Shown one piece after another: positions 7,255 to 36,941 of a DNA stretch of 64,000 bases (its first letter is position 1; each line of letters starts with the position of its first letter). The notes beneath the pieces are model-generated. The model searched no databases. It saw only the letters and a program-made list of their open reading frames with translations, and was not told the DNA's origin. The translations under genes were made by a program, and so were the position numbers. The stretch spans positions 1-64,000 of the IMG/VR virus record IMGVR_UViG_3300043579_000163; one strand, written 5' to 3'. The DNA comes from a virus (taxonomy: Duplodnaviria > Caudoviricetes).

Positions 7255-7409
7255 TGGCATGGTGGGGGATTGAACCTCCTGGCGCACCTCGCGAAGCGCG
7301 CCCTCCACAATCCAGGCTCCGAATGCCGGGCGGCGTCATACGCCCCAGGGACCAACCCAGGGCTTTTGCAAAGCACCGTAGTCTCCCGACCTCCGCCTGT
7401 TACCGTGCC
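7255..7409 (-). ncRNA. Expanded tRNA-like RNA (155 nt)
   Basis: 5' GGCACGG pairs 3' CCATGCC-A (6/7); GGAGG-TTCAATC-CCCCA imperfect T-arm; about 120 nt multi-hairpin insert; flanked by T-runs. Confidence 0.5.
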
Positions 7410-7411
7410 AT

Positions 7412-7634
7412 AAAAATTGTCCTCGCCACAGTTTCGAACTGTGCCTTTCGAGACTTGCCCGACGTGCTACCAACCACACTCACGAGGTTGCTGACGGGTG
7501 ACGGTCCCCGGATTACACAGACACTGTCCCGGTTTCCCACTGTGGCGCATGGGCGGGGCTATTCTGTTCATCACCCTCGCTAACGCGTTACACTACGTCC
7601 TTCCATCTGGCTCCGTTACGAGCACTATCAGCAC
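7412..7634 (-). ncRNA. Putative structured non-coding RNA (about 220 nt)
   Basis: Own promoter with no ATG following; stems GTGCTG/TAGCAC, GGGTGA/TCACCC, CCTCG/CGAGG, CACAGTT/AACTGTG, GG-GAAA-CC; ends at a T-run. Confidence 0.55.
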
Positions 7635-7637
7635 CTC

Positions 7638-7665
7638 AACCTACCACACCAGGGCCCGGCGTCAA
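7638..7665 (-). promoter_or_regulatory. Class I promoter driving the non-coding region
   Basis: TTGACG-16-TAGGTT. Confidence 0.7.
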
Positions 7666-7940
7666 ATTCTTTTTCCAGCAATCGCAGTATGTCCCGGTTT
7701 CGATATACCCATCGCAGGAGCACCGACGAGGAGGCTCACCCGTTTTCGAGGGAGGAAAAGCCGGGTGAAACTCGTGGTAGCGCGTCTCTTCCGTTGCGTC
7801 CACCGCTGCCAGTAGTTGTAAGGGTCCGTATCGCCGTCACAACGCCAGTTCCAGCCGTTACTCTTCTCTCGCGTTACCCCAAGCATGAACACATTCGGGT
7901 GTTCCTTGGTATAGCGTCTCCGTTTGACTTGGTGCTTCAT
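7662..7940 (-). CDS. Hypothetical basic protein
   Basis: 92 aa ORF filling the gap between a terminator and a promoter. Confidence 0.5.
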   Translation of the reverse strand: MKHQVKRRRYTKEHPNVFMLGVTREKSNGWNWRCDGDTDPYNYWQRWTQRKRRATTSFTRLFLPRKRVSLLVGAPAMGISKPGHTAIAGKRI

Positions 7941-7972
7941 GAAAAGAAAACGGGCGGGTTCCCTCCCGCCCT
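7941..7972 (-). terminator. Intrinsic terminator
   Basis: Minus strand GGGCGGG-AGGGAA-CCCGCCC followed by GTTTTCTTTTC. Confidence 0.75.
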
Positions 7973-7991
7973 TACGCCGTCCGTGGGAATC

Positions 7992-8438
7992 TTAGTGGTT
8001 GCCCCCGCTCGGGTTGTTGATGTGCCCGGGAGGAACGAAGGTGCCGCCGCCAGCGCCGCCAGTTCCGTTTCCGCCAGTGCCCACCCCGCCGTTGCCACCA
8101 GTGCCGCCAAGGCCAACGCTCGTCGCTCCGCCGCCGGACTGCTCAACGTTGGTGTTGCTACGGGCCGGGCGCAGCACCGCTGCCGCGCCGACCAGACCGC
8201 CGGCATTCGCGACAGCCGGGACGAATCCAGGACCGCCCGCTCCATTCAGCACGACGAGTTCACCGGACTTGGTCAGCCGGCACACCGTCGTGGTGCTCGG
8301 GGCGAAGACGCCAGCCGTTTTGATGCGAATGATTTTGTCGCCGTTCGGAAGGGTGCCGATTTCTTTCACGCCGGCTTTCGCCAAGCTAACCGAGAGCAGC
8401 AGGGCTGCAATCGCCAACAGGTTTTTGATTTTGGTCAT
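7992..8438 (-). CDS. Exported protein with signal peptide and Gly-rich C-terminal half
   Basis: MTKIKNLLAIAALLLSVSLAKA signal peptide; GGTGGNGGVGTGG tail. Confidence 0.7.
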   Translation of the reverse strand: MTKIKNLLAIAALLLSVSLAKAGVKEIGTLPNGDKIIRIKTAGVFAPSTTTVCRLTKSGELVVLNGAGGPGFVPAVANAGGLVGAAAVLRPARSNTNVEQSGGGATSVGLGGTGGNGGVGTGGNGTGGAGGGTFVPPGHINNPSGGNH

Positions 8439-8479
8439 TGTGTTCGTAGGTTACACGAGACGACGGGTCCCGTCAAATT

Positions 8480-8911
8480 TCACTTCTGCTCCACGCCATT
8501 GATGCTGTGGTTGATTTTGTCCCAGGTCTCCGTGACCTTCCGACCGTGAGTCAAACGAGAGAATCTGTGCGTGTTCGGGTCGTATTCCTGCCAGTCCTTG
8601 GCCCAGGGGCCGCGGAAGGTGAGGACCCAGGTCGTGCCGAAGGAGAAGACGCGGTGAAATGTGTTCCGCAAGGTCCGCACAGGACGCAGACCTGAAAAGT
8701 GAGCTACGGCAGGGCCCTGAAGGAACTCTTCCCACAAGACTCCGCGCAGAACCCAGGACACGCTGTTAAAGGCGTGTGAGTGGAACGATTCGCGTGTGCC
8801 GTGCGTGAAGCGCAACAGCGCGACGCTGAACAGCCCCTTGATTTCACACAGCCAGAAGGCCGTGACGTTAGACTCAGGCCCACCGTCTTTTGATATAGAG
8901 AGGAGTTTCAT
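8480..8911 (-). CDS. Cupin-like protein
   Basis: FHSHAFNSVSWVLRGVLWEE ... TFHRV (HxH...E...H metal motif). Confidence 0.6.
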   Translation of the reverse strand: MKLLSISKDGGPESNVTAFWLCEIKGLFSVALLRFTHGTRESFHSHAFNSVSWVLRGVLWEEFLQGPAVAHFSGLRPVRTLRNTFHRVFSFGTTWVLTFRGPWAKDWQEYDPNTHRFSRLTHGRKVTETWDKINHSINGVEQK

Positions 8912-10143
8912 TGCTGTCCTGTGATGATGGTTTTCGGTTCCCCACGAAGCTCTCCGTCCGAGGGCAGGAACTTCTTGTAGAAGCCGCGGTCGAAAAACAT
9001 GTTGAATTCCGGTCGAACCCGAGTGATGGCTCCGGTCTTCGAGGACATCTTGAACTCGAGGATGACACCTCCGATTTCGTAGCGCAGGTGTTTAGTGCGC
9101 CCGAAAATGGTCTGCTCCTGGAATCCCGGCATCCCGATGATATGGACGTTCCGGTCGAAGCTGTAGCCGCTGACGTGATAGTGGCCCTGCACCAGAATGG
9201 CCGGCTTCTCGCCGCCCTGGAAGCTCTCCACCATCTTCTGGCCCTTGTAAGACCGCGCGTAAGCACTGCCGCCGCCCGGGTGCTGAATCTTCATGCGGTT
9301 CACGAACTCCCCGCAGCGCAGCTCGACGTCGGCCTCGACGTGCCCGATGTATTTCATGTCCTTCCGCCCGAGCCGCTCGCAGACCATCTGAAGATAGGCC
9401 CCGAAGTTGAAGCCCTCTTTCTGCCACCAGCCTTCGTGGTCGTTGCCGGTGATGAAGTGCGTTGTGACCCCGTCGCGTTTCGGATAATGGCGCGCGCAGT
9501 AGAGCGCCTGCCCGTCCACGCTGGTTTCGAAAACGCTGCCGCCGTTAATGCGGGGCACGTAGCCGTCGACGATGTTGCCAGCGTGGAAAACGTCGCGAAC
9601 TCCCTCGCGGGCGAACAGGTCATATTGAGCGTTGAGCGCGTCGAGCCTCTCTTCCCGGCAGCACAGATGCGTGTCGGCCACGAGCCCGATTTTCGTCCAG
9701 GCGTCGCCGTCGAAAACATCGAGCGGGATGCTGCCGAACTCCGTGGGGACCGTCTTGGCCTGCTCGATGAGCGGGTCCTGCTTCGCGGCCGCACCATCAG
9801 CGGGGCTGGGGGTCGGTGCGGGTTCCCCCGCCACTTGGACCACAGGACCCGGAGACGTGCAGACCGCCCACTCGCGACCGTTCCATTCCCTAGGCAAACC
9901 GTCGGGACCAACCCAGATGGGGTTTTCGGGACGCACGAAGTTAGGCATCTTCGCTGCCGGCCCTTTCGCGGAGGCGACCAGTTTTCTCGGCGCACGGAAA
10001 AGCAGACTCTCCGGTGCGAAGCGCTGACGGGCCCGGCGGATGGCGGGTTCGCTCACGCCAAAGAACGTAGCAAGGTGGTCATCCTCACACCCGTCTTTGA
10101 TTAGTTGCTTCAGGGTGACTCTATCCGTTTGTGTCCATTTCAT
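8908..10143 (-). CDS. Calcineurin-like metallophosphoesterase with N-terminal HTH
   Basis: VADTH, HAGNIVDG, TGNDHE, QHP, GHYH motifs; N-terminal LATFFGVSEPAIRR HTH-like segment. Confidence 0.85.
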   Translation of the reverse strand: MKWTQTDRVTLKQLIKDGCEDDHLATFFGVSEPAIRRARQRFAPESLLFRAPRKLVASAKGPAAKMPNFVRPENPIWVGPDGLPREWNGREWAVCTSPGPVVQVAGEPAPTPSPADGAAAKQDPLIEQAKTVPTEFGSIPLDVFDGDAWTKIGLVADTHLCCREERLDALNAQYDLFAREGVRDVFHAGNIVDGYVPRINGGSVFETSVDGQALYCARHYPKRDGVTTHFITGNDHEGWWQKEGFNFGAYLQMVCERLGRKDMKYIGHVEADVELRCGEFVNRMKIQHPGGGSAYARSYKGQKMVESFQGGEKPAILVQGHYHVSGYSFDRNVHIIGMPGFQEQTIFGRTKHLRYEIGGVILEFKMSSKTGAITRVRPEFNMFFDRGFYKKFLPSDGELRGEPKTIITGQQ

Positions 10144-10173
10144 TGGTGGTGTTCTTTTTGGGTTCGGGTTTAC

Positions 10174-10704
10174 TCACTTGGCGCTTCTCTTTGTTATGGT
10201 TATCGCCCACCGGAGCAAGTGTAAGGCATCCGCGCAGTTGTCGTCAACTATGGTGATTGCCGGAAAAAGTTTAGTTGCCTCCCGGACCATGAAGTCCTTG
10301 TCAGCCGCGCCGCTGCCCGTGGCAAGCTTTTTCAACGCGGTCACGGGGATGCAGTCCGTCTCGACATTGTGGATGTAGCAGAAAAGCCACACCGCGGCGC
10401 GGAAGCTGGACCAGAGCTGGGTCTGCATGGTGTAGCGAGAAAACTGCACGTCCTCGAACACCAGGAAGTCCACGGGATAGTTGACGAGGCCGGCGTCACA
10501 CTTGTGGTCCGCCCAAAGCAGACGAAGCCGCTGATACAGCGCAGGAATGCGCGGGTCCAGCCGGCGGTCTAGGCGCGCCTTGGCTGCGCGTTTTCTCTTG
10601 GCCTCGTCTTGCAAGAGCCACGAGCCCGCGGTAATCTTGCCGGCGGCATCCCGGTAGGCCCAGCCGGTCGTGGTTCCGAGGTCGAGTGCGAGGAGGGTCT
10701 TCAC
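10174..10704 (-). CDS. RuvC-like Holliday junction resolvase
   Basis: LLALDLGTTTGWA, FEDV, DDNCADAL acidic residues. Confidence 0.85.
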   Translation of the reverse strand: MKTLLALDLGTTTGWAYRDAAGKITAGSWLLQDEAKRKRAAKARLDRRLDPRIPALYQRLRLLWADHKCDAGLVNYPVDFLVFEDVQFSRYTMQTQLWSSFRAAVWLFCYIHNVETDCIPVTALKKLATGSGAADKDFMVREATKLFPAITIVDDNCADALHLLRWAITITKRSAK

Positions 10705-11408
10705 TTCGCCGCCCTCTTGAACCCCGCGCGCAGCTTCGCTACAATCTGTCCGTGCGCCGCGTGAACCGCCTGCCGGCTCACCTTGCGCTGCCGAGCAATG
10801 TCGGCCATGCTAATTTTCTCATCATAAATGAGCCGGAGCAGCTCCCTCTCGCCGACAGTGAGCTTGCAGCGGCACTTTTTTAGCATCGAGAGGTTCAGTC
10901 CCCGTTCTTCTTGCTCCATCACAATCTCGTCGGTCGACGGGGCTAGCTCGGCAATCTGGCGCTGCGTCTTCACGGGAAGGTGAGGCGGGTTTGTTCCTCG
11001 GTTATTGTCATGCTCCTCTTCCGTGTAGGGCGTGAAGCCGGGGAACTTGTCCGAGTGTGAGGAGGGCGTCACCGTGTTCTTAGACTTCCACAGACCGGCA
11101 ATGGCGCCGCGCAGAAAGGGCATCAGGTAGCGTGTGAAACGATTTCCCCGCTCCGGGTCGAACCTGTCGATGGCGTTCATCAGCGCGGCGTTCACGGCGG
11201 ATATCACTTCATCATCTGGAAGCCGGCCACGATTCTGGCGGCGAGCGAATCGTGCAGCGAACAGCAGATGGTTGTGGATAAGGAATTCACGAGCCGCTGT
11301 GTCGCCCTTTTTCGCCGCCACGAAAAGATTGCGTTCTTCTTCGGGAGTGGTGAGTTTGAAGCGGAGGTTTTCGTTTGCACGATAGTAGTTATTGCTGTTG
11401 GGTGTCAT
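10701..11408 (-). CDS. RNA polymerase sigma70-family sigma factor
   Basis: Region 1.2 LTTPEEERNLFVAAKKGDTAAREFLI, region 2 ALMNAIDRFDPERGNRFTRY, region 4 HTH ISMADIARQRKVSRQAV. Confidence 0.9.
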   Translation of the reverse strand: MTPNSNNYYRANENLRFKLTTPEEERNLFVAAKKGDTAAREFLIHNHLLFAARFARRQNRGRLPDDEVISAVNAALMNAIDRFDPERGNRFTRYLMPFLRGAIAGLWKSKNTVTPSSHSDKFPGFTPYTEEEHDNNRGTNPPHLPVKTQRQIAELAPSTDEIVMEQEERGLNLSMLKKCRCKLTVGERELLRLIYDEKISMADIARQRKVSRQAVHAAHGQIVAKLRAGFKRAAK

Positions 11409-13662
11409 TAGATTTCTGGTAAATGCTGTCCGTCCTTTGTTCAGGCACTTCCAGAACCGTGAGATTCTTCGGATAGTGTGTGCAGCGGTCGATTTCGTAT
11501 GTGCGAATCTTGGAGCCCTCGAGAATGCGAATCTTGAACTGCGAACTCTTGCTCAGGGTCATCAGGTCGCGCTTGATGCGGTCCAGGTCGAACTTGCGTA
11601 GAACCTCCGTGAGCCCCGGAACCTGCGCGAACTGTTGCCATAGGTCAAGCGCGCTGCCGGTCCACACGTTGGCGTCGGGGTTCGTCTTTGTGAAGTATTC
11701 GCGCATGAAGGCGTTCATCAGCTCCGCAGTGTTCGAGGCGCGGCTGCTCTGCTGGGCTGAGATGACCATGTATGGGTCGTGATAAGGCTTGATGCCCCCG
11801 AATCGCTCATCCCGGACGGCTGAGCTACGGCATTGCTCGGGGATTTCGTAATCCAGCAGGAAGCGACCGAACCAGGGCAACTCGCGGTCGAGGATGGTCT
11901 TCACCTCACCCCACCCGGGAAAAGATTTTGTCCGTTCTTTCGCCAGGAACATCATCACCTTGTCAGCCATTTCGGCGTCCATGTCGGGAGGCGTGAAAGA
12001 CGTGGAGTCCATGTTGCAGGTAATCACGGTTAGGGCGCAGTTCCCAATCACCGCGCCGATACGAAACTTTTCGTTGCACTCTTTGGAAGGGTTCGCGACA
12101 CTCTGTTTTACCTTCTCGCAAAACTTCCGCCACACTGGCGAGTTGGTTTCCATCGAGGTGTCGTCAACGGCGTGATACGCGTAATCGAAAAGCTGAGAGT
12201 TGAAGTTCGTTTCCCCGAGCAGGTGGGCCTTCGCCTCAGCGAAGCCTCCCAAAAGCCGGCCCATCACCTCACGGCTCTGGAAAGTTTTTCCGCATCCGAC
12301 AGGACCTCCGATGTAGAGAGCATGACCCGGGGTCAGGTTCCGGTTGTAACAGCCCTTGTAGGCCTTGCTTGCCCAGCTCAGGAAAAACGGGAGCTGGTCA
12401 GGCGTGGCGAAAAAGTTGTCATAGAGGTCCGAGAGGAACGGGAACTGTCCTTCGGGGCCCCAGATTGCTTTTCCCTCCGCCGGCTGGATTACGTCGCGCG
12501 TGTGAGTGTTAAGGTAGTAGTGACCGTTGAAAAAGATTTTGCCCTTGGGTTCTGAAAAGGCGAAGCTGGCGTGCGCCTTCACGCGTTGCTCATTGTGGAT
12601 GTAGGCGTATGCAGCCTCGACCTCAGAGAACCTCTCGCCCTTTTTCTTGCTGACCTCTCGCGACAGGCCGCGCATCACTACCAGCTCGGTCTGCACGTTG
12701 TCCTTGTTCAGGATGTCCCAGCGCCCGCTCTCCCTTTTTACCGCATAGTCCTTTCCGTCGAAGTAGACGTCCTTCACTGCCGTTCCAATTCGGTTCTGTT
12801 CAAACTGCTTCACCCAGTCTGCGCCCAGCAGCTCGGACCAGGACCACCAGCCCTTGCCCAACTGATTCGCATGATTGGAAAAGGTCTTCATGCCGTTGTC
12901 CATCACGATGGCGGACCTCTCCGAAGTTGAGCCATCGACCCAGAAGGTTGGTCCCTGCGCCCCCAGGGCGAAGTCTCCCTTCCATTCTTGGAAGCGGGGA
13001 TACTTGTCCTTGAGTTCTCGTAGACGTTCAGCCACCACGGGAATCGGGATGACAACGCCCGGTTCCATATCCTTCCATGAATACGAGCGACACAGCTTGA
13101 CCAGCCAGCCGACAACCAGAGCGTGCGGGATGGGGTTCGGGTTCACCTGACGCCATTGGCAACCATTCGCGTAATAGCGAGAGGGCTCCGTGTATCCAGA
13201 GTCCAGGTTGCTCAGCTCTTTAATCGGAAGGAAATCATGAATACTTTTTAGCAGGAAGACTGCAAAGTTTCGGGATGAGAGGAGAATGGGCACCTCGAAA
13301 ATCCAAACCAGCCGCCAGTTGCCGGACAGGGAACGCTCTACCCAGTTCGGCTTTATGTCCATGCGCGCGATTGCCGATTCGACTTCCTGTTCCGTGAACT
13401 TCGCGTCATAGTCACCCACGAAACACCGAAGCTCTCGCGGAGAGTTCGCACTGTCCTTTCCACCGGCCTCGCTCACGCGCGCGTTCTCGTTGATGGCAAC
13501 GAAGCCCGTGTAGAACATGAAGTCGGTTGCGGGTAAATTTGCCCAGGTCTCCCGGGCCGCCTTGTCTCCGAGACAATTCGGGGGAACTAGGTCAAGCTTG
13601 ATGAACTCCCAGGGGTTGCCTTCAAAGGTTTCGGTAGAGGAAAGGTTTTTGAGGTATCGCAT
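11389..13662 (-). CDS. Primase-helicase (N-terminal primase-like DxD domain, C-terminal SF3/D5-like NTPase)
   Basis: VGDYDA...RSLSGNWRLVW; YIGGPVGCGKT Walker A; HAVDD Walker B; adjacent to the DNA polymerase. Confidence 0.8.
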   Translation of the reverse strand: MRYLKNLSSTETFEGNPWEFIKLDLVPPNCLGDKAARETWANLPATDFMFYTGFVAINENARVSEAGGKDSANSPRELRCFVGDYDAKFTEQEVESAIARMDIKPNWVERSLSGNWRLVWIFEVPILLSSRNFAVFLLKSIHDFLPIKELSNLDSGYTEPSRYYANGCQWRQVNPNPIPHALVVGWLVKLCRSYSWKDMEPGVVIPIPVVAERLRELKDKYPRFQEWKGDFALGAQGPTFWVDGSTSERSAIVMDNGMKTFSNHANQLGKGWWSWSELLGADWVKQFEQNRIGTAVKDVYFDGKDYAVKRESGRWDILNKDNVQTELVVMRGLSREVSKKKGERFSEVEAAYAYIHNEQRVKAHASFAFSEPKGKIFFNGHYYLNTHTRDVIQPAEGKAIWGPEGQFPFLSDLYDNFFATPDQLPFFLSWASKAYKGCYNRNLTPGHALYIGGPVGCGKTFQSREVMGRLLGGFAEAKAHLLGETNFNSQLFDYAYHAVDDTSMETNSPVWRKFCEKVKQSVANPSKECNEKFRIGAVIGNCALTVITCNMDSTSFTPPDMDAEMADKVMMFLAKERTKSFPGWGEVKTILDRELPWFGRFLLDYEIPEQCRSSAVRDERFGGIKPYHDPYMVISAQQSSRASNTAELMNAFMREYFTKTNPDANVWTGSALDLWQQFAQVPGLTEVLRKFDLDRIKRDLMTLSKSSQFKIRILEGSKIRTYEIDRCTHYPKNLTVLEVPEQRTDSIYQKSNDTQQQ

Positions 13663-13702
13663 GCAGCCCCTAAGAGTATGTCACCTGTAGGCCTCTCGTC
13701 AA

Positions 13703-29077: not shown

Positions 29078-29252
29078 AGTTAAAACTTTCCGAGCTTGAT
29101 GCGCCGGATTTCGGTTTTGATTTTGGCAATGGCGCGCTGACGCGCTCGGACGTTGAGGTGTGAGGTCCTGATGTATTCCTTCATCTCGGCGATGCGCTTG
29201 TCCAGCAGGATTTGCTTGTTGGTCCAGGGTTGCTTGGGTGTGGTGGGCATAG

Positions 29253-30281
29253 CTATGACACGTTGGATTGGTAGTGCATCGGTGTGCCGCTATCGCTGTC
29301 GGGGATAGCCGGCGGACGGCTGTTGGTTAACGTGTTCAGGGCGGACTCGAGTTGCGCCTGCTCTTTATCCATGTCTTGCAGAAGTCCAGATATACTGGAA
29401 TGCGCCTGTATGCCTGACTGAATCACGGTGTTCAGGCCCATCACACGGCCAGCAAACTTGCCGGCGAGACACTCAGGCTTGCGTGCGTCACGAATGCTGG
29501 TGTAATACTTGAGCAGGGTTTTCAGGCGATCCTCCATCCCCCGTGTGTTCGCCTCGAATTGCTCCAGCTCTCGCTGTGCTGCTCGCACCTGTTGCACCCA
29601 TACGAAAAGGGCGCGACTGGGTAGCTTCTTTGCGGCCTTCTCCCACTCATCCAGGTCCAGCTCGGGCTTGTGTGCATCACGATGTTGCAGCAGCTTGGCC
29701 TGATGCTCATTGATGAAGTCCACCAGCTCGTGTGTCCACCGTGATTCATCCTCCAGCTCGGCAAGCGGGTCTCTCTGTGCGAAATGCGCCGCTTCAATAA
29801 AGGCCTCGTAGGTCCCGTGTGACCAGGGAATTTCGAGGAAATACTTCCTTCGGAGGACCAGCTTCCAAAAATCACATTCAACAGCCGCCTCCGCCTTGTC
29901 CTTGAATCCAGTGGCCAGTGGAAAACGCCGCTTGGTGTTCGAGTCCTCACTCAGCTTGACCCTCATGCGCGTGTCGCTCGGGTCTTGCGGCGTGTAGCCG
30001 TAGCAGTCCGCGTTGAACACACCGACGGGACGACCGAACACGCTCGGGTCCTTGAACACATCGGAGCTGACGGAAAAGCGGAAGTGGTGTGGTGTGTTGC
30101 CAACCGCGACGGAGTAGTAAACGTGACGGAACTGTGAGGATACCGGCAGGTCTCGAGAGTTGAGTTTACTTTGCACGTCCCAAATATATGTGACCGAGGT
30201 GCTCCACGTCAACTTATGGAGACAGTTAATTCCGGAGAGGGCGGCATCGCACTTAACCTCCGCGAGGCAGGGTAGGGACAT
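29253..30281 (-). CDS. Hypothetical protein with C-terminal coiled coil; first gene of the leftward arm
   Basis: 342 aa; start codon lies inside the left arm of the inverted repeat. Confidence 0.6.
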   Translation of the reverse strand: MSLPCLAEVKCDAALSGINCLHKLTWSTSVTYIWDVQSKLNSRDLPVSSQFRHVYYSVAVGNTPHHFRFSVSSDVFKDPSVFGRPVGVFNADCYGYTPQDPSDTRMRVKLSEDSNTKRRFPLATGFKDKAEAAVECDFWKLVLRRKYFLEIPWSHGTYEAFIEAAHFAQRDPLAELEDESRWTHELVDFINEHQAKLLQHRDAHKPELDLDEWEKAAKKLPSRALFVWVQQVRAAQRELEQFEANTRGMEDRLKTLLKYYTSIRDARKPECLAGKFAGRVMGLNTVIQSGIQAHSSISGLLQDMDKEQAQLESALNTLTNSRPPAIPDSDSGTPMHYQSNVS

Positions 30282-30387
30282 AAGAACGACGTCAGTAAAC
30301 AGTCTTTATTTTTCTATATACATACTATACGCTATTGTGACTAAAATATAATACATACAGGTAGAAGAGTGACGTGGTTCTTATGTC
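30277..30387. repeat. 18-bp inverted repeat (1 mismatch) around a 75-bp AT-rich core at the strand switch
   Basis: GACATAAGAACGACGTCA (30277-30294) versus TGACGTGGTTCTTATGTC (30370-30387). Confidence 0.85.
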
Positions 30388-30488
30388 TCACCCCTCGGTT
30401 TTGGCGCCTGGACTCTCGGACCCCAGGACATACGGGACGGTAGTTGAGGCTTGCGCCCTTTTAATTTTGGACAGCGAAAAGTTGGGCG

Positions 30489-30519
30489 TTGACATAAGTC
30501 CAGGATAGAGACCCTCTTG
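30489..30519 (+). promoter_or_regulatory. Class II promoter candidate
   Basis: TTGACA-16-ACCCTCTTG-5-GTG. Confidence 0.5.
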
Positions 30520-30524
30520 AGATA

Positions 30525-30713
30525 GTGAACGAACCGACATCAGGTCCTCAAGACATACCGGAGGACCACGAGGCGAACCTCTTCAGCGGTGCCAGCGAGA
30601 AGGCCAAGCAGCTTTTCACCGAGTCGAAGCGCGTGAGACGTGCCGCCGAGCGCCGGCTGTGGTGGCAACAGAACAAACCGAAGGGGCCACCACCCGAAGG
30701 AGAGTCGCAGTGA
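30525..30713 (+). CDS. Hypothetical protein
   Basis: Follows the promoter; stop overlaps the next GTG. Confidence 0.55.
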   Translation: MNEPTSGPQDIPEDHEANLFSGASEKAKQLFTESKRVRRAAERRLWWQQNKPKGPPPEGESQ

Positions 30714-31369
30714 GCCGCATCATCGACAAGAACAAGGTGGACGTGAGTCAGTGTTTCCTGGCCTTCATGACCTTCGTTGGTGACGTGGACCGGACAGCGG
30801 CTGCACTGGACCTCGAGCCCAAGCAGGTGCGAGAGCTTGCGGAAGCCGAGGGCTGGGCCGACAAGCTGCGGCGCGTGTCGCTGATGTCCAAGAGTGGCCG
30901 GCCCGGCGACTTCGAACGCGCGACCAACAGGGCCCTGTGCTTCGTGCAGGCTCAGTGCATCCGACAGCAGCTCAACAGGCTGCTGACCGAGGTGACCAAC
31001 ATGAGTGTTGAGGACCTGATGAGCCGGGCAAGCGTGCGGACCAGAGACGGAGCAATGCAGTTGAGCGCCAAGTTTTTCGTGGATATGACAGGAGCCGCAG
31101 AGGCCTGTCACCGTATGTCTTACATCGCATTGGGCGACACCATCACCGAACGGACCGAGTCTGAAGGCGGAAGCGGCAAGGGCCCGAACACCAATGACCT
31201 GCACTCGGCCATCATCGCGCACCTATCAGACCCATCACAGCAGCTTGGACCAGTCACCGATAAGCTTGTGGCTGAGGCGAATGAAGAAGTTCAGAGGCGC
31301 AATGCCGTAACTCCACACTTCGCGGACTCAGTAGAAGCACCTACCGAGGCAGAAGCTGCCGAGCAGTGA
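30710..31369 (+). CDS. Probable terminase small subunit (N-terminal HTH)
   Basis: VDRTAAALDLEPKQVRELAEAEGW HTH-like segment, helical body, acidic tail; first large gene of the late arm. Confidence 0.45.
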   Translation: MSRIIDKNKVDVSQCFLAFMTFVGDVDRTAAALDLEPKQVRELAEAEGWADKLRRVSLMSKSGRPGDFERATNRALCFVQAQCIRQQLNRLLTEVTNMSVEDLMSRASVRTRDGAMQLSAKFFVDMTGAAEACHRMSYIALGDTITERTESEGGSGKGPNTNDLHSAIIAHLSDPSQQLGPVTDKLVAEANEEVQRRNAVTPHFADSVEAPTEAEAAEQ

Positions 31370-31681
31370 GCGAGCATCGAGCGCGTGAAAATCACGCATC
31401 GGCTGGTCCAGCGACCCAATTGAGGCGTGAAAGTTGGGTATTAGTTCCCAGTCCAGTTCGTCCCGAAGACAGTGAGTCTGCAGGTCCTTGAGACATACGG
31501 ACTTATCCGTTCAAAAGAAAGCCCACACTCCGAACGCAAGACCTCGAGGCCAACTGGGCAAGGATTTCCGAGTAGAAAACGACCCCCCACCCACGGGGAC
31601 ATACCGGGGGGCGAAGCTCGCTCAGCGGTCAGACGGCTAAAAAATCTTCCCTCTATGTGACCTAAGAGCCCGTTTTTCTCA

Positions 31682-31713
31682 TTGACAAGAAGGCAGAGCG
31701 CCACACCCTCTTG
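31682..31713 (+). promoter_or_regulatory. Promoter candidate (fits both classes)
   Basis: TTGACA-16-CACCCT-6-ATG, or TTGACA-17-ACCCTCTTG. Confidence 0.6.
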
Positions 31714-31715
31714 CC

Positions 31716-32297
31716 ATGCGAAAAAACTCGTTCAGGGTAGTCCGGGACACCCCGGAGAAGCTCGGCATGACCCAGGAGCAGTGGGACAGCCCGGCGGAGG
31801 TCCAGAAGCGCCACGACCGTTGGAACGCGCGTCGACAGGCCCGGATGTTTCAGAGGTCCAAGGCCGCTGCTGCCGGCATGACTTGGGAGCAGTGGCAAGA
31901 ACACAAAAAAGTCCTGCGTGAAATGCCTAAGTCCTCGCACGCGGAATACCTCCGGTCCTACCGCGCCACTCCGCGGGGTAAAGCCGTGTTCGACCGGGCC
32001 GCGAAGAAAGCAATGGAAAAAAATCGGCGGGAGTATTCCCTCTTGAAGGCGGGGCAGCCCTGTCAAGACTGCGGCGGGTGTTTTCATTCCCATGCTATGG
32101 AGTGGGACCACCGGGACGGGGAAATAAAGTCCTTCAGCATTTCCTACATGGGGCGAGAAGGGCGGGTTGGGAGAGAACTTCTCGCCATAGAGATTGCAAA
32201 GTGCGACCTCGTGTGCTCTAACTGCCACCGCGCCCGAACGGCGCGCAGACGCCAGGGCTTGCCGGCGGTGCTACCGGCCCCCGAATACGAAATCTGA
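31716..32297 (+). CDS. HNH endonuclease
   Basis: CQDCG...MEWDH...KCDLVCSNCHRART. Confidence 0.85.
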   Translation: MRKNSFRVVRDTPEKLGMTQEQWDSPAEVQKRHDRWNARRQARMFQRSKAAAAGMTWEQWQEHKKVLREMPKSSHAEYLRSYRATPRGKAVFDRAAKKAMEKNRREYSLLKAGQPCQDCGGCFHSHAMEWDHRDGEIKSFSISYMGREGRVGRELLAIEIAKCDLVCSNCHRARTARRRQGLPAVLPAPEYEI

Positions 32298-32307
32298 CGC
32301 GGCCCCC

Positions 32308-32335
32308 TTGACACCCGGCGCCGGCATGGCACATT
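32308..32335 (+). promoter_or_regulatory. Class I promoter, leaderless
   Basis: TTGACA-16-CACATT-6-ATG. Confidence 0.75.
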
Positions 32336-32341
32336 GCCGGC

Positions 32342-32539
32342 ATGATTATCTATCAACTCAAGCACCCTAACCGGACCTGGGTATGCTCCTGGGGCCCCTG
32401 TGTCCTGGGAGAGACCCCCTCCCACTCGCAGTGGCAGCGTCTTTCCTCGCGCCGGGAAGCGAGGCAGTTCGCGCGCTGCATGAGAAACAACGGCATGGAC
32501 ATACAGCGCGCCATAAGGGAATACTGTTGCTTCCCTTGA
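32342..32539 (+). CDS. Hypothetical protein (leaderless)
   Basis: Promoter abuts the ATG. Confidence 0.65.
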   Translation: MIIYQLKHPNRTWVCSWGPCVLGETPSHSQWQRLSSRREARQFARCMRNNGMDIQRAIREYCCFP

Positions 32540-32564
32540 CATCCCGAAGCCCCTATGCCACATT
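32536..32564 (+). promoter_or_regulatory. Class I promoter, leaderless
   Basis: TTGACA-17-CACATT-6-ATG. Confidence 0.75.
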
Positions 32565-32570
32565 GCCCCC

Positions 32571-33410
32571 ATGAATATCACTGAACCAATCGTCAGAAAG
32601 CTTATCGAAACCGTCGATGCCGGCTTGTGCCGCGGTATCGGAAAACCCAACCCTGGTGAAATGTGCGTGGAGGCTGCGGTGTGCTACGCTCTCGGTCTGC
32701 CGCACGGTGACAACCCGGGCTGCGTAGCGGAATCGGTGCGTCGCGCAAAGATTCGACTAAATGACGCCCCCTGGTCTAGCCCCCGGGCCCGGGCGGCGGG
32801 ACTGCGTGCAGTTGCCGTTGCCCAACTGGGAAGCAAGGGCGTTATCGACGCACGGCGTTTTTGTGCCGTGTATGCCGAACTCACCATTCGCCGGGTGGTC
32901 CCGATAGCGCTACGGGCAGCGGGTCTCCCGGACTATGCCCTGCGCTGCGAGACCGAAGGCACCCAAGACTCCGCAGCCGCCGCCGCCTACGCCGCCTCCG
33001 CTGCCGCCTCCGCCGACGCCTACGCCGCCTCCTCCGCCGCCGCCTACGCCGCCTCCGCTGCCGCCTCCTCCGCCGACTGCGCCTACGCCTCCTCCTACGC
33101 CGCCTACGCCGCCGCCTACGCCGCCGCCGACTGCGCCTACGCCGACTGCGCCGCCTACGCCGACTGCGCCGCCTACGCCTCCTCCTACGCCGCCTACGCC
33201 GCCTGCGCCTCCTCCCCCGTTGCCAACGCCTCCTCCGCCGCCTCCGCCCACGCCGCCCACGCCGCCCACGCCGCCTTCTCCGACACGGATGCCCTTCTCA
33301 CCATCGCCGCGGAATGCATGCTTGAGGCCCTCAAGGCAGTTGAGTCCCCTGGCTGCAAATTCCTACACCTGCTTGACACCCCCAAAAACTGTGGCACCTT
33401 ACCAGTATGA
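32571..33410 (+). CDS. Phage protein with Ala/Tyr/Ser low-complexity repeat region
   Basis: Globular N-terminus (MCVEAAVCYALGLPHGDNPGCV...LND) followed by about 105 codons that are nearly all NNC. Confidence 0.8.
   Translation: MNITEPIVRKLIETVDAGLCRGIGKPNPGEMCVEAAVCYALGLPHGDNPGCVAESVRRAKIRLNDAPWSSPRARAAGLRAVAVAQLGSKGVIDARRFCAVYAELTIRRVVPIALRAAGLPDYALRCETEGTQDSAAAAAYAASAAASADAYAASSAAAYAASAAASSADCAYASSYAAYAAAYAAADCAYADCAAYADCAAYASSYAAYAACASSPVANASSAASAHAAHAAHAAFSDTDALLTIAAECMLEALKAVESPGCKFLHLLDTPKNCGTLPV
33373..33400 (+). promoter_or_regulatory. Class I promoter, leaderless
   Basis: TTGACA-16-CACCTT-6-ATG. Confidence 0.7.
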
Positions 33411-33601
33411 TTGATTACGCCGCCTTGAACTGCTGGGACCAAGCCAGCCCCCCGGCCATGGGGGCTCCACTCACCTGGAGCCTGGGACCAGTGCGTGCCC
33501 TGCCCTTGCCGCCTGCGCCTACGCCCACGCATGACATTCTCTGCAATATTGTGAACACTTGTGAACACTGCCCTGGTGTGCTGACGTATGATAACCATTG
33601 A
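33407..33601 (+). CDS. Hypothetical protein (leaderless)
   Basis: Promoter abuts the ATG. Confidence 0.55.
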   Translation: MIDYAALNCWDQASPPAMGAPLTWSLGPVRALPLPPAPTPTHDILCNIVNTCEHCPGVLTYDNH

Positions 33602-33770
33602 ACGAACAGACACCTTCATCGCCGGCACCACGATGTTCCGGGTGACCCCAGGTCCTTGGCTCCGCAAACGCGGAGTGATTTTCGGGCCATGGTGCCACTC
33701 GCGCCGAACCGCCGTGCTGATGTGGATTGCGAACGTGTCCGACTGCCACGATTTTCACCCGGGCCTATGA
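33588..33770 (+). CDS. Hypothetical protein
   Basis: Stop overlaps the recombinase ATG. Confidence 0.55.
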   Translation: MITIERTDTFIAGTTMFRVTPGPWLRKRGVIFGPWCHSRRTAVLMWIANVSDCHDFHPGL

Positions 33771-34480
33771 AAGTTTTCGCCTACCTGCGGGTCAGCACCT
33801 CAGCGCAACTCGACGGAGGGGGGTTCGAACGCCAGCTCGACACCATTAAGGTTCTCTGTGCTGCGCGTGGGTGGACTATCGCGCGCACCTTCAGGGACCA
33901 GCAGAGTGGATGCACTGAGTTCGATGACCGCTCGGGACTGCATGAAATTCTGTCCCTGGCCGGAGAGGGCAGCGCGCTTGGGATTGATACCGTCATCGTG
34001 GAGAACGCTTCTCGCGTGGCGCGTGACCTGATGGTGCAGGAGATTTTTCTGTGCGAATGCCGCAAGAGGGGCATCAAGGTTTACGCGGCGGACTGTGGCG
34101 AGGAGCTGGTCATGGACGGCGCAGACCCCTCGCGCGTGATGATTCGCCAAATTTTGGGCGCGGTGTCACAGTATGAAAAGGCCATGACTGTCCTGAAGCT
34201 CCAAGCGGGACGGCGCAAGAAGGCCCGTGAAACGGGCAGGCCTTGCGGGGGCCCCAAACAATACGGGACCACCGCAGGTGAACGCGCAATTCTCACCGAC
34301 ATTAAGATGCGCCGACGCCAGGGTAAAACCTTTCAGGAGATTGCCAACGAGATGCGTGAAATTGGGTATCCCGCGCCCCGTGGCGGATATTGGCACCGCT
34401 CCACGGTCTGGACAATACTGACTCGGGATGCGGAACGGAAAGCGGCGCAGAACCGATTTGACCAAGACAACGACCAATGA
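33767..34480 (+). CDS. Serine recombinase (resolvase/invertase catalytic domain plus short C-terminal recombinase HTH)
   Basis: MKVFAYLRVSTSAQ (catalytic Ser), IVENASRVARD, C-terminal TFQEIANEM...GGYWHRSTVWTIL. Confidence 0.9.
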   Translation: MKVFAYLRVSTSAQLDGGGFERQLDTIKVLCAARGWTIARTFRDQQSGCTEFDDRSGLHEILSLAGEGSALGIDTVIVENASRVARDLMVQEIFLCECRKRGIKVYAADCGEELVMDGADPSRVMIRQILGAVSQYEKAMTVLKLQAGRRKKARETGRPCGGPKQYGTTAGERAILTDIKMRRRQGKTFQEIANEMREIGYPAPRGGYWHRSTVWTILTRDAERKAAQNRFDQDNDQ

Positions 34481-34698
34481 ACGAGATTTTTAGCATGGCA
34501 CCAACGCGCCTCGACGAACGCCCTCGCAAAATTATTTTGCGGAATGCGATGTATTTGCTCAAGGCCAAATACCGTCGGTATCCCGCCCGGGTTTTGGTCG
34601 CAGCCCTCACCGGGTTCGGCTGCACCAACTCAATAGAAGTTTGTCTGGAACTTGGCATTGACCCGGACCAACCCTTCAAAGAGTTCTCAAGAGAGTGA
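34477..34698 (+). CDS. Hypothetical protein
   Basis: ATGA overlap; GFGCTNSIEVCLELGIDPD. Confidence 0.6.
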   Translation: MNEIFSMAPTRLDERPRKIILRNAMYLLKAKYRRYPARVLVAALTGFGCTNSIEVCLELGIDPDQPFKEFSRE

Positions 34699-35056
34699 AA
34701 AATTGAAAAATAGGGACAAACAGCTCTGGGCCTATGTATGCACGGTGTTAGACAACACCGCGACACGTTTTGGGTTCCCGCTCCCAGACATCCGGCCCAT
34801 CAAGAAGAAGTGGGGCGGAAACTATGTGGGCTCTTGCTCGAAGCGCAATGTTCTCCGCATCGCCCTTCGCGATTGCGACGGAAAGTTGGTGGAGCCTTAT
34901 CAGCTCATAGACACGATAGCGCACGAACTTGCTCATCTTCGTTCGCAGAAGCACGGGGCACTGTGGTTCCACTGCCACATCCTGGTTTTGACGCATCTCT
35001 CGAACGTCGGGGTCTACGAGGACCTTCGACGAATTATGAAAGGCAAGACCACATGA
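34652..35056 (+). CDS. SprT/WLM-like zinc metallopeptidase (start uncertain, probably about 34703)
   Basis: DTIAHELAHLRSQKHGALW (HExxH...H). Confidence 0.7.
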   Translation: MALTRTNPSKSSQESEKLKNRDKQLWAYVCTVLDNTATRFGFPLPDIRPIKKKWGGNYVGSCSKRNVLRIALRDCDGKLVEPYQLIDTIAHELAHLRSQKHGALWFHCHILVLTHLSNVGVYEDLRRIMKGKTT

Positions 35057-35280
35057 AAAAAGACACCGCCCAACAAATCGAGCGAGAGTTCGACCGAATG
35101 TGCCGGACAAATCACCTGTTCAAGGAATACGTGGCCCTGCACCCTGACAGCTCGATGGATGAGCTATTGGCCGGCTGGGCGTGGGTTCAGAAGCTGATGG
35201 AAAAAGTTATCCAGCGCACCATTCGGGACTTGACGGGACCTCCGCCACCGCCTAAGTTGAGTCTGCAAAGAGACAGATAA
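35053..35280 (+). CDS. Hypothetical protein
   Basis: Start MKKDTAQQ overlaps the upstream stop. Confidence 0.55.
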   Translation: MKKDTAQQIEREFDRMCRTNHLFKEYVALHPDSSMDELLAGWAWVQKLMEKVIQRTIRDLTGPPPPPKLSLQRDR

Positions 35281-35285
35281 ACCCT

Positions 35286-35561
35286 ATGAACACAAGAATC
35301 CTAACTGCCCCCAATGGCTCGCTGATGCGCGCCGCGCACATCGTCTCGGTATCCCCGCTGTTTGAATCGGACGTGCTTGGCACAGATGCCTTCGCAGTTT
35401 ATACCGTGGGCAGCGAGGAGCCCTTTGTGTTCTGCGCCCCCGACCAGGGCGGGGGGCCAAAGAGTGCTGAACGGCGAAAGAGAGAAACCGCCGAGCTGCA
35501 CCAGCAGTTCATTAATCAATGGATTGTGTCCCTGGACAACACAACATATCTAAAAAACTAA
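35286..35561 (+). CDS. Hypothetical protein
   Basis: Tightly packed ORF. Confidence 0.55.
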   Translation: MNTRILTAPNGSLMRAAHIVSVSPLFESDVLGTDAFAVYTVGSEEPFVFCAPDQGGGPKSAERRKRETAELHQQFINQWIVSLDNTTYLKN

Positions 35562-35571
35562 GCAAGGTCCC

Positions 35572-35766
35572 ATGAACCCTGAATCTCTGAAACCTCTCCC
35601 CCTTGGTCTGCCCTCGGCTTTTGTACGGGCCGAACCTGGAAAGCCAACACCCACTCTCGTGCTCGCGGAAATCCTTCGAATAGCCGCGGAACCAAGGTGC
35701 ATAAACCCGACGGAGAAACTTATTTTTGATGGCCAAGGTCGAGTGGCGAACCGAAGGCGTTACTGA
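35572..35766 (+). CDS. Hypothetical protein
   Basis: Tightly packed ORF. Confidence 0.45.
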   Translation: MNPESLKPLPLGLPSAFVRAEPGKPTPTLVLAEILRIAAEPRCINPTEKLIFDGQGRVANRRRY

Positions 35767-35878
35767 TATGTTCTCTCTTGCAACAATCCAGCGTCTAAAT
35801 AACACCGTCGAATTGCGAAAAGCGAAACGTCGGGCGCGCGCACTGAATGCGAAGAATAAAAAGAGCCCAGTCCTTAAG

Positions 35879-35908
35879 TTGACAAGGGGCCCTTGAGCGA
35901 GATATGTT
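35879..35908 (+). promoter_or_regulatory. Sigma70-like promoter for the RNA cluster
   Basis: TTGACA-18-TATGTT, no ATG-led gene follows. Confidence 0.6.
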
Positions 35909-35921
35909 CAGGTGTTAGAAA

Positions 35922-35934
35922 TGTTCTTTGAAAA
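35922..35934 (+). promoter_or_regulatory. boxA-like antitermination element
   Basis: TGTTCTTTGAAAA, matching the rRNA-operon boxA consensus of many bacteria, about 15 nt after the -10 box. Confidence 0.6.
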
Positions 35935-36003
35935 AGGTTGTTCCTTTGTGGCCAACCCGCTGTGTAACAACTCAGCCGCCAGGGCCGCGATAGGGTCCAC
36001 CAA

Positions 36004-36126
36004 TTTCTCCGAGTGTCTTACCGAATGGTGGGAATCTGCCGCAGAGCTATGCGGGCCCACCATAGAGGGAATGGAAGCACACCGCCTCAAAAGGCGTTAG
36101 TCCGGGTTCGAGTCCCGGGGAGAGGA
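36004..36126 (+). ncRNA. Expanded tRNA-like RNA (123 nt), degenerate CAA anticodon arm
   Basis: TTTCTCC pairs GGAGAGG-A (7/7 with 2 G-U); perfect T-arm CCGGG-TTCGAGT-CCCGG; 52-nt hairpin insert after the 5' acceptor strand. Confidence 0.55.
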
Positions 36127-36127
36127 A

Positions 36128-36736
36128 CAGACCCGAGCAGGTCATATAAAAGGCTCGATGTCGAGACGGGGTTTCGCGAAGTTGCAGTTCTCCTGCACCC
36201 GAAAGGACGCATGGCCCCGCACCAGCTCGACTATTGTGCGAGGGACTAGGATGGTCCCCGCCACATTTTTTGTGACCTGACGCAACAACTCTTCCTGGAC
36301 CCAGGTTGAAAAGAATAGAGGAAAGGTTAAATGCCCTACGGACGGTCTCCAATTTTGACGCGACTCCGAACAACAGGCCGCAGGACCCCCAGGGAGGCCA
36401 CGGCAAGCGGGGAGGAACACGGGGGCGCGCCAGCCGGCGAATGGCTCAAAGTCCGAGAGGGCTACCGGGAGCCCGCCAATCTGAACTACGGTTCAGAGCC
36501 CAGTCGAACTGGCGTAACCAACCCCCGCTTACTTTTGATGGGCTCGTCGTCTAAGAAAGGACACCGGCTAAATATCCATCACTGGACTCGAAGCTGCGCC
36601 TTAAACAGACCGCTTCGACCAAACCAACTTCTCCGGGGAGAGCGGGGTTTCGGCCCTGAAGTAACGGCGTCTTAAGCGCACGTGGAATAACGCCCCGGAA
36701 ATTTTGCGGTAGAGGCCACAGAAAAGCCAAACCGCT
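36128..36736 (+). ncRNA. Hairpin-dense putative structured RNA(s), several modules separated by T-runs
   Basis: Stems GTCGAG/CTCGAC, AAGCGGGG/CCCCGCTT, TCCGGGG/CCCCGGA; tetraloops TACG, TTCG, GAGA, GAAA; no convincing ORF. Confidence 0.6.
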
Positions 36737-36738
36737 GC

Positions 36739-36811
36739 GCCGCCGTGATGCCTGGGGCCAACTGGAACTCCAAATCCCGGTGGGAGGGTTCAATCCCCTC
36801 CGGTGGTGCCA
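36739..36811 (+). tRNA. trnW: tRNA-Trp(CCA) with shortened D-arm and encoded CCA end
   Basis: GCCGCCG/CGGTGGT acceptor, G73, CCA; anticodon loop CTCCAAA; perfect T-arm GAGGG-TTCAATC-CCCTC; 73 nt. Confidence 0.75.
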
Positions 36812-36818
36812 TTTTTAT

Positions 36819-36941
36819 GTTCCCTGGGCCGGGGGAAAATGCCCGGTTCGATAGCAGGGTGCTCGCGGTGAGATATCTAGCCGCGGGAACTGGAAGGGTA
36901 AAGACCAGCGACCCGAAGCCGTTCAAATCGGCGGGGGAACA
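36819..36941 (+). ncRNA. Expanded tRNA-like RNA (123 nt) with three-way-junction insert
   Basis: GTTCCCT pairs GGGGAAC-A (7/7); GCCG-TTCAAAT-CGGC T-arm; GCCGGG/CCCGGT hairpin; GGGT/ACCC stem enclosing two hairpins. Confidence 0.55.

Follow-up and report, generated by a model that had tools for sequence, protein, structure and literature searches.

Candidate tRNA-derived small-RNA genes in two non-coding islands of a soil phage genome

Results

Two islands encode structured RNAs missed by standard annotation

The phage record IMGVR_UViG_3300043579_000163 consists of 72,818 bases and is rated complete by IMG/VR; the window analyzed here is its first 64 kb. The tRNA-derived genes of this 73-kb soil phage are located in two short non-coding islands without a credible open reading frame (ORF), locus A (~7661–7206, minus strand) and locus B (35898–36950, plus strand). 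We focus on three elements that an initial annotation had described as tRNA-like RNAs: E1 and E3 at locus B, and EA at locus A. Proteins encoded in the window include a family A DNA polymerase, a UvrD-type helicase, a primase-like protein, and a collagen-repeat protein. The standard annotation of this phage lists no tRNA and no known RNA family, and within the window there were zero calls by ARAGORN (default settings) and by Rfam (gathering thresholds). Approximately 1.5 kb of promoter-driven sequence nevertheless encodes tRNA-derived and other structured RNAs. With E-value thresholds, the Rfam matches in the window were confined to 36737–36809 (22.5 bits, tRNA-Sec model) and the bare T arm of E1. 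As to the possibility, raised at the outset, that all three RNAs might belong to known families or be decayed tRNAs, none matches Rfam at gathering thresholds, and E1 proves to be tRNA-derived. The features of locus B, all on the plus strand, are as follows.

35879–35908, plus strand: sigma-70-like promoter of the array, TTGACA-18-TATGTT (10 of 12 positions; 0.5 in shuffled sequence)
35935–35936, plus strand: insertion site of an 81-nt tRNA-Met(CAU) of relatives, a gene missing here (present in L063, L002, and X5/X6 contigs)
35959–36002, plus strand: 44-nt ACCA module (pattern search; about 20 distinct unrelated IMG/VR phage contigs)
36004–36126, plus strand: E1, predicted tRNA-derived gene (acceptor/T-arm scan, folding, ARAGORN deletion test)
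36018–36066, plus strand: 49-nt D-loop insert of E1, a hairpin AUGGUGGG/CCCACCAU around CCGCA/UGCGG
36160–36231, plus strand: conserved 72-nt structured RNA downstream of E1 (5 lineages; fold z = −2.5)
36298–36909, plus strand: 612-nt block absent from a near-identical relative (L063 and X5/X6 DNA contigs)
36736–36811, plus strand: compact aberrant tRNA, anticodon CCA (Trp), with a degenerate D arm and encoded CCA
36811–36819, plus strand: junction 9-mer ATTTTTATG that links the Trp-like gene to E3, with U at −1 and G at +1 relative to E3
36819–36941, plus strand: E3, a 123-nt element with a 7-bp acceptor and a T arm, and no recognizable D/anticodon arm

The genome was scanned for TTCRANN loops enclosed by a perfect 5-bp stem, with the next 7 nt able to pair with a strand 60–220 nt upstream; shuffled sequences served as the control. 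This strictest form of the pattern gave two matches in the 72.8-kb genome (shuffles 0.33), E1 and the Trp-like gene ending at 36808, both of which fall in locus B. At the grade of E3, which allows one T-stem mismatch, there were 8 matches in the genome compared to 2.6 expected. At a grade still stricter than EA (at most one mismatch each in T stem and acceptor), the 16 matches found compare with 14.9 expected.

E1 resembles a tRNA-Leu(CAA) with an insert in its D loop

The acceptor of E1 (TTTCTCC/GGAGAGG) forms 7 bp, including two G-U pairs, and is followed by an A discriminator, CCA not being encoded. The T arm (CCGGG-TTCGAGT-CCCGG) has a 5/5 stem with no mismatch. The lower half consists of a D stem (GUGU/GCAC), a 60-nt D loop that keeps the GG, a 5-nt variable loop, and an anticodon-like arm, CGCC-UCAAAA-GGCG, which can be drawn either with 4 bp and a 6-nt loop or with an 8-nt loop on a mismatched stem. 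Folding of E1 yields −48.9 kcal/mol (z = −2.2), with a four-way cloverleaf and a closed acceptor in the minimum free energy (MFE) structure. When 36018–36066 is deleted in silico, default ARAGORN calls a 74-nt tRNA with an 8-nt anticodon loop 'caaa'. Calls were obtained for 114 deletion variants of E1 (113 'caaa' and 1 'caa') and for 0/8 random control segments.

A pattern made from the anticodon loop and T arm of E1 retrieves ordinary 74–78-nt phage tRNA-Leu(CAA) genes, the 3' halves of which resemble E1. Compared to these genes E1 is one base short in the 5' strand of the anticodon stem, resulting in the arm of 4 bp and a 6-nt loop. With RF00005 and phage tRNA-Leu(CAA), E1 shares the acceptor, D stem, D-loop GG, variable loop, T arm, and discriminator; it differs from canonical tRNAs in its 60-nt D loop, its 6- or 8-nt anticodon loop, and a score below every detection threshold. 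To our knowledge, known tRNA expansions lie in the variable arm and not in the D loop. Based on its sequence, we consider E1 to be a tRNA of the Leu(CAA) type with a 49-nt hairpin in the D loop and a non-standard anticodon loop. The initial annotation held that the D/anticodon half had been replaced by unrelated domains; this is incorrect for E1, which keeps the D stem, the GG, an anticodon-like arm, and the short variable loop and is thus a tRNA with an insert rather than a top half with a substituted lower half. Its broader description of a tRNA top half with an extra folded domain, in a promoter-driven array beside a conserved structured RNA, is borne out by E1, which has the top half and more.

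E1 is 99% identical in L002 and 100% identical in L063, while the adjacent spacer (36127–36159) is replaced in relatives and contains a 17-nt indel. The copies found in IMG/VR and the JGI (Joint Genome Institute) metagenomes were all near-identical, and so allow no covariation test. The third acceptor pair is U-A in E1 and E3 and C-G in EA; none of the three has the G3·U70 mark of alanine tRNAs.

RNA of E1 is found in two metatranscriptomes

Two sediment metatranscriptomes from different studies (X23, X24) contain contigs that cover 36017–36245 and 36017–36167. These contigs cover nothing else of the 1.4 kb compared, flanking genes included, and the missing coverage says nothing about those other parts. 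The RNA contigs fit a stable RNA and lend weak support to the expectation that E1 exists as RNA. The single contig spanning 36017–36245 indicates that E1 and the conserved RNA at 36160–36231 occur on one molecule.

E1 is flanked by two conserved RNA modules

The 44-nt ACCA module lies directly 5' of E1. It consists of a hairpin (GCTG/CAGC), the linker CGCCA, a second hairpin (GGGCC-GCGATAG-GGTCC), ACCA, and then ATTT. A 21-nt pattern for the module retrieved 23 IMG/VR stretches, located mostly within the tRNA arrays of unrelated phages; carriers are the window, L010, L011, L013, L016–L020, L023–L028, and L030–L032. Across contigs the layout is nearly invariant (hairpin, 5–6-nt linker led by CG, hairpin GGGYC...RUCC, ACCA, AUUU), an invariance that is partly by construction, as the search patterns fixed most of the identity bases. 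The upstream stem pairs in 20/20 distinct copies representing 9 different sequences, compared to 1–5/20 when the register is slid. The module is absent from Rfam, and a literature search found no description of it or of D-loop-expanded phage tRNAs, which does not prove that none exists.

The terminal hairpin of the module reproduces G1-C72, G2-C71, G3·U70, C4-G69, A73, and CCA of phage tRNA-Ala. The set that defines a mimic of the alanine acceptor, G1-C72, G2-C71, G3·U70, A73, and CCA at a helix end, is present in 35959–36002. In L032, L028, and L010, the tRNA-Ala genes of the phages themselves begin with the same four top pairs; the fourth pair is U-A instead of C-G in two copies of the module. 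A tRNA-Ala(UGC) gene often lies about 60 nt upstream of the module (L032, L028, L027, L010). Nine matches to the pattern in bacterial and archaeal genomes were rejected as chance (about 9 expected), being located in coding-like sequence without the upstream GG and hairpin, and thus give no clue to the host.

The conserved RNA downstream of E1 (36160–36231) is built from the outer stems GTCGAG/CTCGAC and CGGGG/CCCCG and an inner hairpin in which two base pairs are changed on both sides among 5 phage lineages. It has no Rfam match. In L010 this RNA is found behind an ordinary tRNA-Arg, and in L011 behind a different module.

Locus B is reshuffled among relatives

Relatives of locus B were collected by way of the downstream gene and of a pattern for the conserved RNA; a phage GenBank collection gave no match to the locus. 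The promoter at 35879–35908 is conserved in L002. Relatives carry tRNA genes at this position: an aberrant tRNA-Met(CAU) in L002, L010, L011, and L013, a tRNA-Arg(UCU) and an Ala-like gene in the L010 island, and a tRNA-Phe(GAA) (43 bits in Rfam) in that of L011. By sequence comparison, we assign locus B as the tRNA island of a phage lineage. In the tRNA-Met(CAU) genes themselves the D stem has 3–4 bp and its loop is tiny, the anticodon stem has 6 bp, and the first acceptor pair is U1-A72; these genes score below the Rfam tRNA threshold. A first MAFFT alignment had suggested that 35940–35965 is a remnant of this tRNA-Met gene, a reading we rejected: the segment is a separate hairpin, and comparison with L063 and X5/X6 shows the gene to be cleanly absent.

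The modules of locus B are shuffled among the genomes of relatives. The 612-nt block spans a large RNA module and the Trp-like tRNA and covers three quarters of E3 from its 5' end; the deletion joint (36297>36910 in X5, X6, and L063) is at a 5-nt microhomology. Presence or absence of the 81-nt tRNA-Met, presence or absence of the 612-nt block, and differing modules after the same junction provide a direct view of cassette exchange. Two other interpretations of the block were discarded. The ORF at 36331–36675 has an RBS-like (ribosome-binding-site-like) sequence, GAGGAAAGG, but L002 has lost the start region of this ORF and conserves the remainder; and 36300–36570 was rejected as RNase P RNA or two-piece transfer-messenger RNA (tmRNA), having no support from Rfam or ARAGORN.

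The Trp-like gene and E3 share a junction

The Trp-like gene (36736–36811) scores 22.5 bits, below the Rfam threshold, is called by ARAGORN at a relaxed threshold only, and differs from its counterpart in L002 by one substitution. It and a compact gene at locus A (7488–7419) adjoin the long elements and formed no part of the original finding. The junction 9-mer ATTTTTATG occurs in 2 copies in 64 kb compared to 0.22 expected, each copy linking a compact tRNA-like gene to the initial G of E3 or EA. Both copies give the context with U at −1 and G at +1 that RNase P prefers. One relative carries another module behind this ATTTTTATG junction (loose end after 36819). The ATG within ATTTTTATG was considered as a start codon and rejected: it opens 3 codons at locus A, and at locus B its frame overlaps the conserved ORF 36951 out of frame.

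The acceptor of E3 (GTTCCCT/GGGGAAC) forms 7 bp with one G-U pair, the discriminator is A, and CCA is not encoded. The T arm has 4 bp and an A·G mismatch, with the loop TTCAAAT at 36922–36928. Folding gives z = −2.6, and the acceptor is closed in the MFE structure. An ARAGORN deletion scan of E3 returned mixed anticodons, and neither E3 nor EA has a consistent anticodon arm. E3 ends 9 nt before the ATG of ORF 36951–37505. No counterpart was found in L002, in IMG/VR (exact probe), or in any collected locus (BLAST); in L063 just the last 32 nt remain.

Locus A contains a compact tRNA-like gene and a weak element

The features of locus A, all on the minus strand, are as follows.

7638–7665, minus strand: promoter-like TTGACG-N16-TAGGTT (regular-expression match; not listed by the consensus scan)
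7419–7488, minus strand: compact 70-nt tRNA-like cloverleaf (acceptor/T-arm scan, folding)
7409–7417, minus strand: the other occurrence of the 9-mer ATTTTTATG, linking the compact gene to EA
7255–7409, minus strand: EA, 155 nt long, with weak tRNA-like ends (6/7 pairs in the acceptor, 3/5 in the T stem)

The compact gene 7488–7419 combines a 6-bp acceptor and a perfect T arm with a normal, GG-containing D arm and an anticodon loop of 5 nt. It had no Rfam match (E up to 10), no IMG/VR match with an exact probe, and no BLAST match in the collected loci. The acceptor of EA (GGCACGG/CCATGCC) contains a C·A mismatch and is followed by an A discriminator without encoded CCA; its T stem (GGAGG/CCCCA) pairs at 3/5 positions around the loop TTCAATC. 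With two T-stem mismatches, the pairing of EA is by itself not above chance. Its fold is no better than that of shuffled sequences (z = +0.28), the acceptor is not formed in the MFE structure, and the ARAGORN deletion scan yielded 3 calls. EA had no BLAST match among the collected loci; the exact probes of public collections comprised E1, E3, and 7488–7419, not EA. Locus A is missing from G001, the closest complete relative (80% identical), where about 330 nt of unrelated sequence lie between the helicase and the upstream gene. A DNA search for locus A in five related virus records returned nothing meaningful, and the flanking protein at 6843–7205 has no relative in IMG/VR.

The initial annotation had placed three tRNA-like RNAs at these loci. 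The features named are present at their positions, and as tRNA-like elements E1 is clear, E3 plausible, and EA weak, being at chance level. The dedicated promoter that it proposed for each locus was substantiated at locus B; at locus A the evidence is the regular-expression match. A further proposal, that the three RNAs form one family or system, was not supported: the inserts share no sequence and are mutually unrelated, they show no co-conservation, and both locus A and the 612-nt block with most of E3 are missing in relatives. Speaking in favor of a common design is the unique junction ATTTTTATG shared by E3 and EA.

Long RNAs closed by an acceptor and T arm recur in other phage arrays

In 312 kb of array loci from unrelated phages we found 26 T arms with perfect acceptor closure at a distance of 95–230 nt, compared to 1.6 in shuffled sequence, indicating that expanded RNAs closed by an acceptor/T-arm stack are recurrent in phage arrays. 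Seventeen of the 26 have no closure at normal length, and 12 of these are not ARAGORN tRNAs. Some of the 12 are tRNAs with giant inserts in the variable or anticodon region, among them, with giant variable regions, the 129-nt units of L020 (Leu CAA) and L027, and one is a phage tmRNA located inside a tRNA array (L057:5869–6137, 106.8 bits). Rfam tRNA scores were 39 bits for the L027 unit (129 nt) and 43 bits for a 118-nt unit in L052. Units of 100–145 nt that have a perfect acceptor and T-arm closure and that ARAGORN misses are as follows.

L019:8730–8850: 121 nt, no recognizable anticodon arm; G3·U70, A73, CCA
L020:4873–5001: 129 nt
L020:1051–1175, minus strand: 125 nt, no recognizable anticodon arm
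L023:1166–1295, minus strand: 130 nt, mixed anticodon calls
L032:7867–8010: 144 nt, few and inconsistent ARAGORN calls
L054 ~9470–9577
L059 ~11160–11260 and ~11900–12010

The expanded array RNAs are heterogeneous; the D-region insert of E1 is one variant, and the L023 unit looks similar.

Two further observations were made in these arrays. L051, L056, and L060 contain a tRNA-like gene of about 93 nt, with the end ...CCTCTCCGCCA, that ARAGORN does not call; its 9-bp acceptor (GCGGAGAGG/CCTCTCCGC) and short T stem resemble the 8/4 or 9/3 'allo-tRNAs'. A GOLLD RNA (167.6 bits) is located at L023:7121–7512 on the minus strand, in a contig that carries the ACCA module.

Discussion

We favor, with moderate confidence, the interpretation that loci A and B are accessory, rapidly reshuffled phage tRNA/small-RNA operons, the units of which are cassettes rather than members of one homologous family. 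A sigma-70-type promoter of its own would drive each locus and yield a precursor of several units, and cassettes would be exchanged at conserved U-rich boundaries. A phage tRNA gene of the Leu(CAA) type would have given rise to E1 by gaining the 49-nt D-loop hairpin and a slipped anticodon arm, so that it most likely no longer decodes. The acceptor/T-arm stack of E1 is intact and may direct the 5' cut by RNase P, 3' trimming, and CCA addition; if it is still processed in this manner, a stable tRNA-like RNA would accumulate. At the least, E1 would act as punctuation in the precursor and define where the downstream conserved RNA has its 5' end. E3 may represent another unit built in this style, specific to its lineage and dispensable. 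After the 3' cut of E3 the next gene would retain a leader of 9 nt, fitting the leaderless-type promoters of other genes in this phage. EA probably does not function as a tRNA mimic.

Several observations weigh against this interpretation. Both RNA contigs begin at 36017, 13 nt inside E1, whereas the DNA contigs continue, a weak hint of either an RNA lacking the 5' acceptor strand or a stop of reverse transcription. The RNA contigs also read through the supposed 3' end of E1. The RNA ends of E1, E3, and EA are predictions. No covariation supports E1, E3, or EA, for which there are near-identical copies or none, and the single substitution of E1 in L002 disrupts a pair of the insert. Finally, the pairing of EA is at chance level, and L063 dispenses with both E3 and the Trp-like gene.

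These observations could also be accounted for by neutral decay, the units being dying tRNA genes and debris, without a function of their own, in a shrinking tRNA island. We consider this a real but distinctly lesser possibility. Consistent with decay, the tRNA-Met is already lost here, a near-identical phage lacks the 612-nt block, which contains the Trp-like gene and most of E3, and locus A is absent from G001. Defective anticodon loops in E1 and 7488–7419 and the degenerate D arm of the Trp-like gene point in the same direction, as does the finding that E3, EA, and 7488–7419 are singletons, with EA at chance level. Decay does not, however, readily explain why the acceptor and T arm of E1 are free of mismatches or why E1 is 99–100% conserved amid spacers that are replaced. 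E1 also sits behind a strong conserved promoter, is together with the adjoining RNA the sole part of the locus present in two RNA libraries, and has an architecture that recurs in long units of unrelated phages.

On a reading that follows the idea of the initial annotation, the elements would be purposeful mimics, in which the tRNA top half is a scaffold for interchangeable domains or imitates the acceptor end, addressed to host factors such as synthetases, EF-Tu, the CCA enzyme, or tRNA-targeting defense toxins. This appears unlikely. It gains from the presence in one phage of two tRNA-like genes with the top half kept and the anticodon loop shortened, from the 100–145-nt acceptor/T-arm-closed RNAs that recur in phage tRNA arrays, from the unique junction ATTTTTATG common to E3 and EA, and from the ACCA module, which lies 5' of E1, is found in about 20 unrelated contigs, and copies tRNA-Ala from G1-C72 to A73 and CCA. 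The inserts, however, show neither conservation nor covariation, E3 and EA are lineage-specific or dispensable, and the G3·U70 alanine mark is not present in E1, E3, or EA. A protein-domain scan of 20 ORFs, a part of those in the genome, identified no partner protein gene and no TROVE domain. The specific suggestion of a decoy for anticodon nucleases, which requires an intact anticodon loop, is disfavored for E1 (6- or 8-nt loop) and for 7488–7419 (5-nt loop), because the anticodon loop is precisely the damaged part of both.

Least probable, in our opinion, is that E1 is the 5' domain of an RNA of ~230–260 nt (36017 to ~36270) that includes 36160–36231, with the T arm merely an internal T-loop motif: the shared start of both studies' RNA contigs at 36017, the uninterrupted extension of one to 36245, and a hairpin followed by a T run at ~36233–36275 would fit such an RNA, but contigs cannot reveal ends, the libraries lose RNAs of ~120 nt, the 5' strand of E1 is perfectly paired and kept in relatives, and the position of the conserved RNA behind tRNA-Arg in L010 and another module in L011 indicates that its pairing with E1 is not fixed.

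A broader proposal, which we advance tentatively alongside the cassette interpretation, is that phage tRNA islands could share an undescribed, recurrent class of RNA that does not decode and has retained just the acceptor end of a tRNA. Such a class might, if it exists, take two forms, an acceptor/T-arm stack around inserts of 30–80 nt and the 44-nt ACCA module. Possible members of the stack form would be E1, E3, and the 100–145-nt units in L019, L020, L023, L032, and L054. One could speculate that these RNAs engage readers of the acceptor end, such as the alanyl- or leucyl-tRNA synthetases (AlaRS/LeuRS), EF-Tu, the CCA enzyme, RNase P, or acceptor-stem toxins. The copying of the alanine identity set by the ACCA module predicts charging or binding by AlaRS.

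Small stable RNAs other than tRNAs have precedent in phage tRNA operons. The tRNA region of phage T4 encodes the small stable RNAs RNAC and RNAD (earlier, species 1 and 2), which are transcribed along with the tRNAs and whose roles are unexplained (PMC3014915; PMC9697503). RNAC and RNAD are the nearest precedent for the units described here; the likeness is one of position within a phage tRNA operon, T4 belongs to a different phage group, and E1 is demonstrably a tRNA with an insert. RNAC and RNAD are ~120–140 nt in size, a range that would match E1. E1-type units and the ACCA module bear on the 50-year-old question of what role RNAs of the RNAC/RNAD type play.

Other RNAs resemble the present elements in some respect. 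Like tmRNA, they have an acceptor and T arm enclosing a large inserted domain; unlike tmRNA, E1, E3, and EA lack G3·U70, a tag reading frame, and pseudoknots, and neither ARAGORN nor Rfam detects a tmRNA in the window. A tRNA-like fold that recruits RNase P or RNase Z and stabilizes or releases an attached RNA is also the principle of mascRNA/MALAT1, of the tRNA-miRNA units of gammaherpesviruses, and of the engineered 'tRNA scaffold'. Those systems differ in being eukaryotic or engineered, and the scaffold's cargo replaces the anticodon stem; for the phage elements processing would be the shared property. GOLLD and ROOL are likewise large ornate RNAs beside phage tRNA genes, but the window contains no Rfam match to them and the modules here are much smaller. 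The bacterial Y RNA YrlA is a modular non-coding RNA with a tRNA-like domain; in YrlA, however, the ends form a Ro-binding stem, the tRNA-like part is internal, and an rsr gene is the partner, while here there is no Rfam match. Group I introns in tRNA genes are ~200 nt or more, interrupt the anticodon loop, and have a P3–P9 core, whereas the insert of E1 is 49 nt and lies in the D loop; Rfam gave no intron match.

If E1-type units are processed like tRNAs, they would be natural counterparts of the engineered 'tRNA scaffold' and would, if the interpretation is correct, offer a route to study how phages build and exchange small-RNA cassettes. If decay is the sole process at work, the locus still documents the fast turnover of a tRNA island, with 81-nt and 612-nt indels between near-identical genomes.

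Additional features of the genome

A serine recombinase of 274 amino acids is encoded at 33656–34480, 1.4 kb upstream of locus B. It contains a Resolvase N-terminal domain and the start of a Recombinase domain, and is shorter than typical large serine integrases. Given this gene, the tRNA-like 3' ends were considered as attP cores (integration sites); no support was found for this role.

ORF 36951 has no Shine-Dalgarno sequence. Elsewhere in the genome, minus-strand promoters of the form TTGAC(A/G)-N16-17-TA(A/T)(A/T)TT are found at three genes, with −35 elements at 7239, 6638, and 4623. At these three genes the −10 element is placed 6 nt before the ATG (TAAATT-aaccgc-ATG at two and TATTTT-agggcc-ATG at the third), a spacing that implies leaderless mRNAs.

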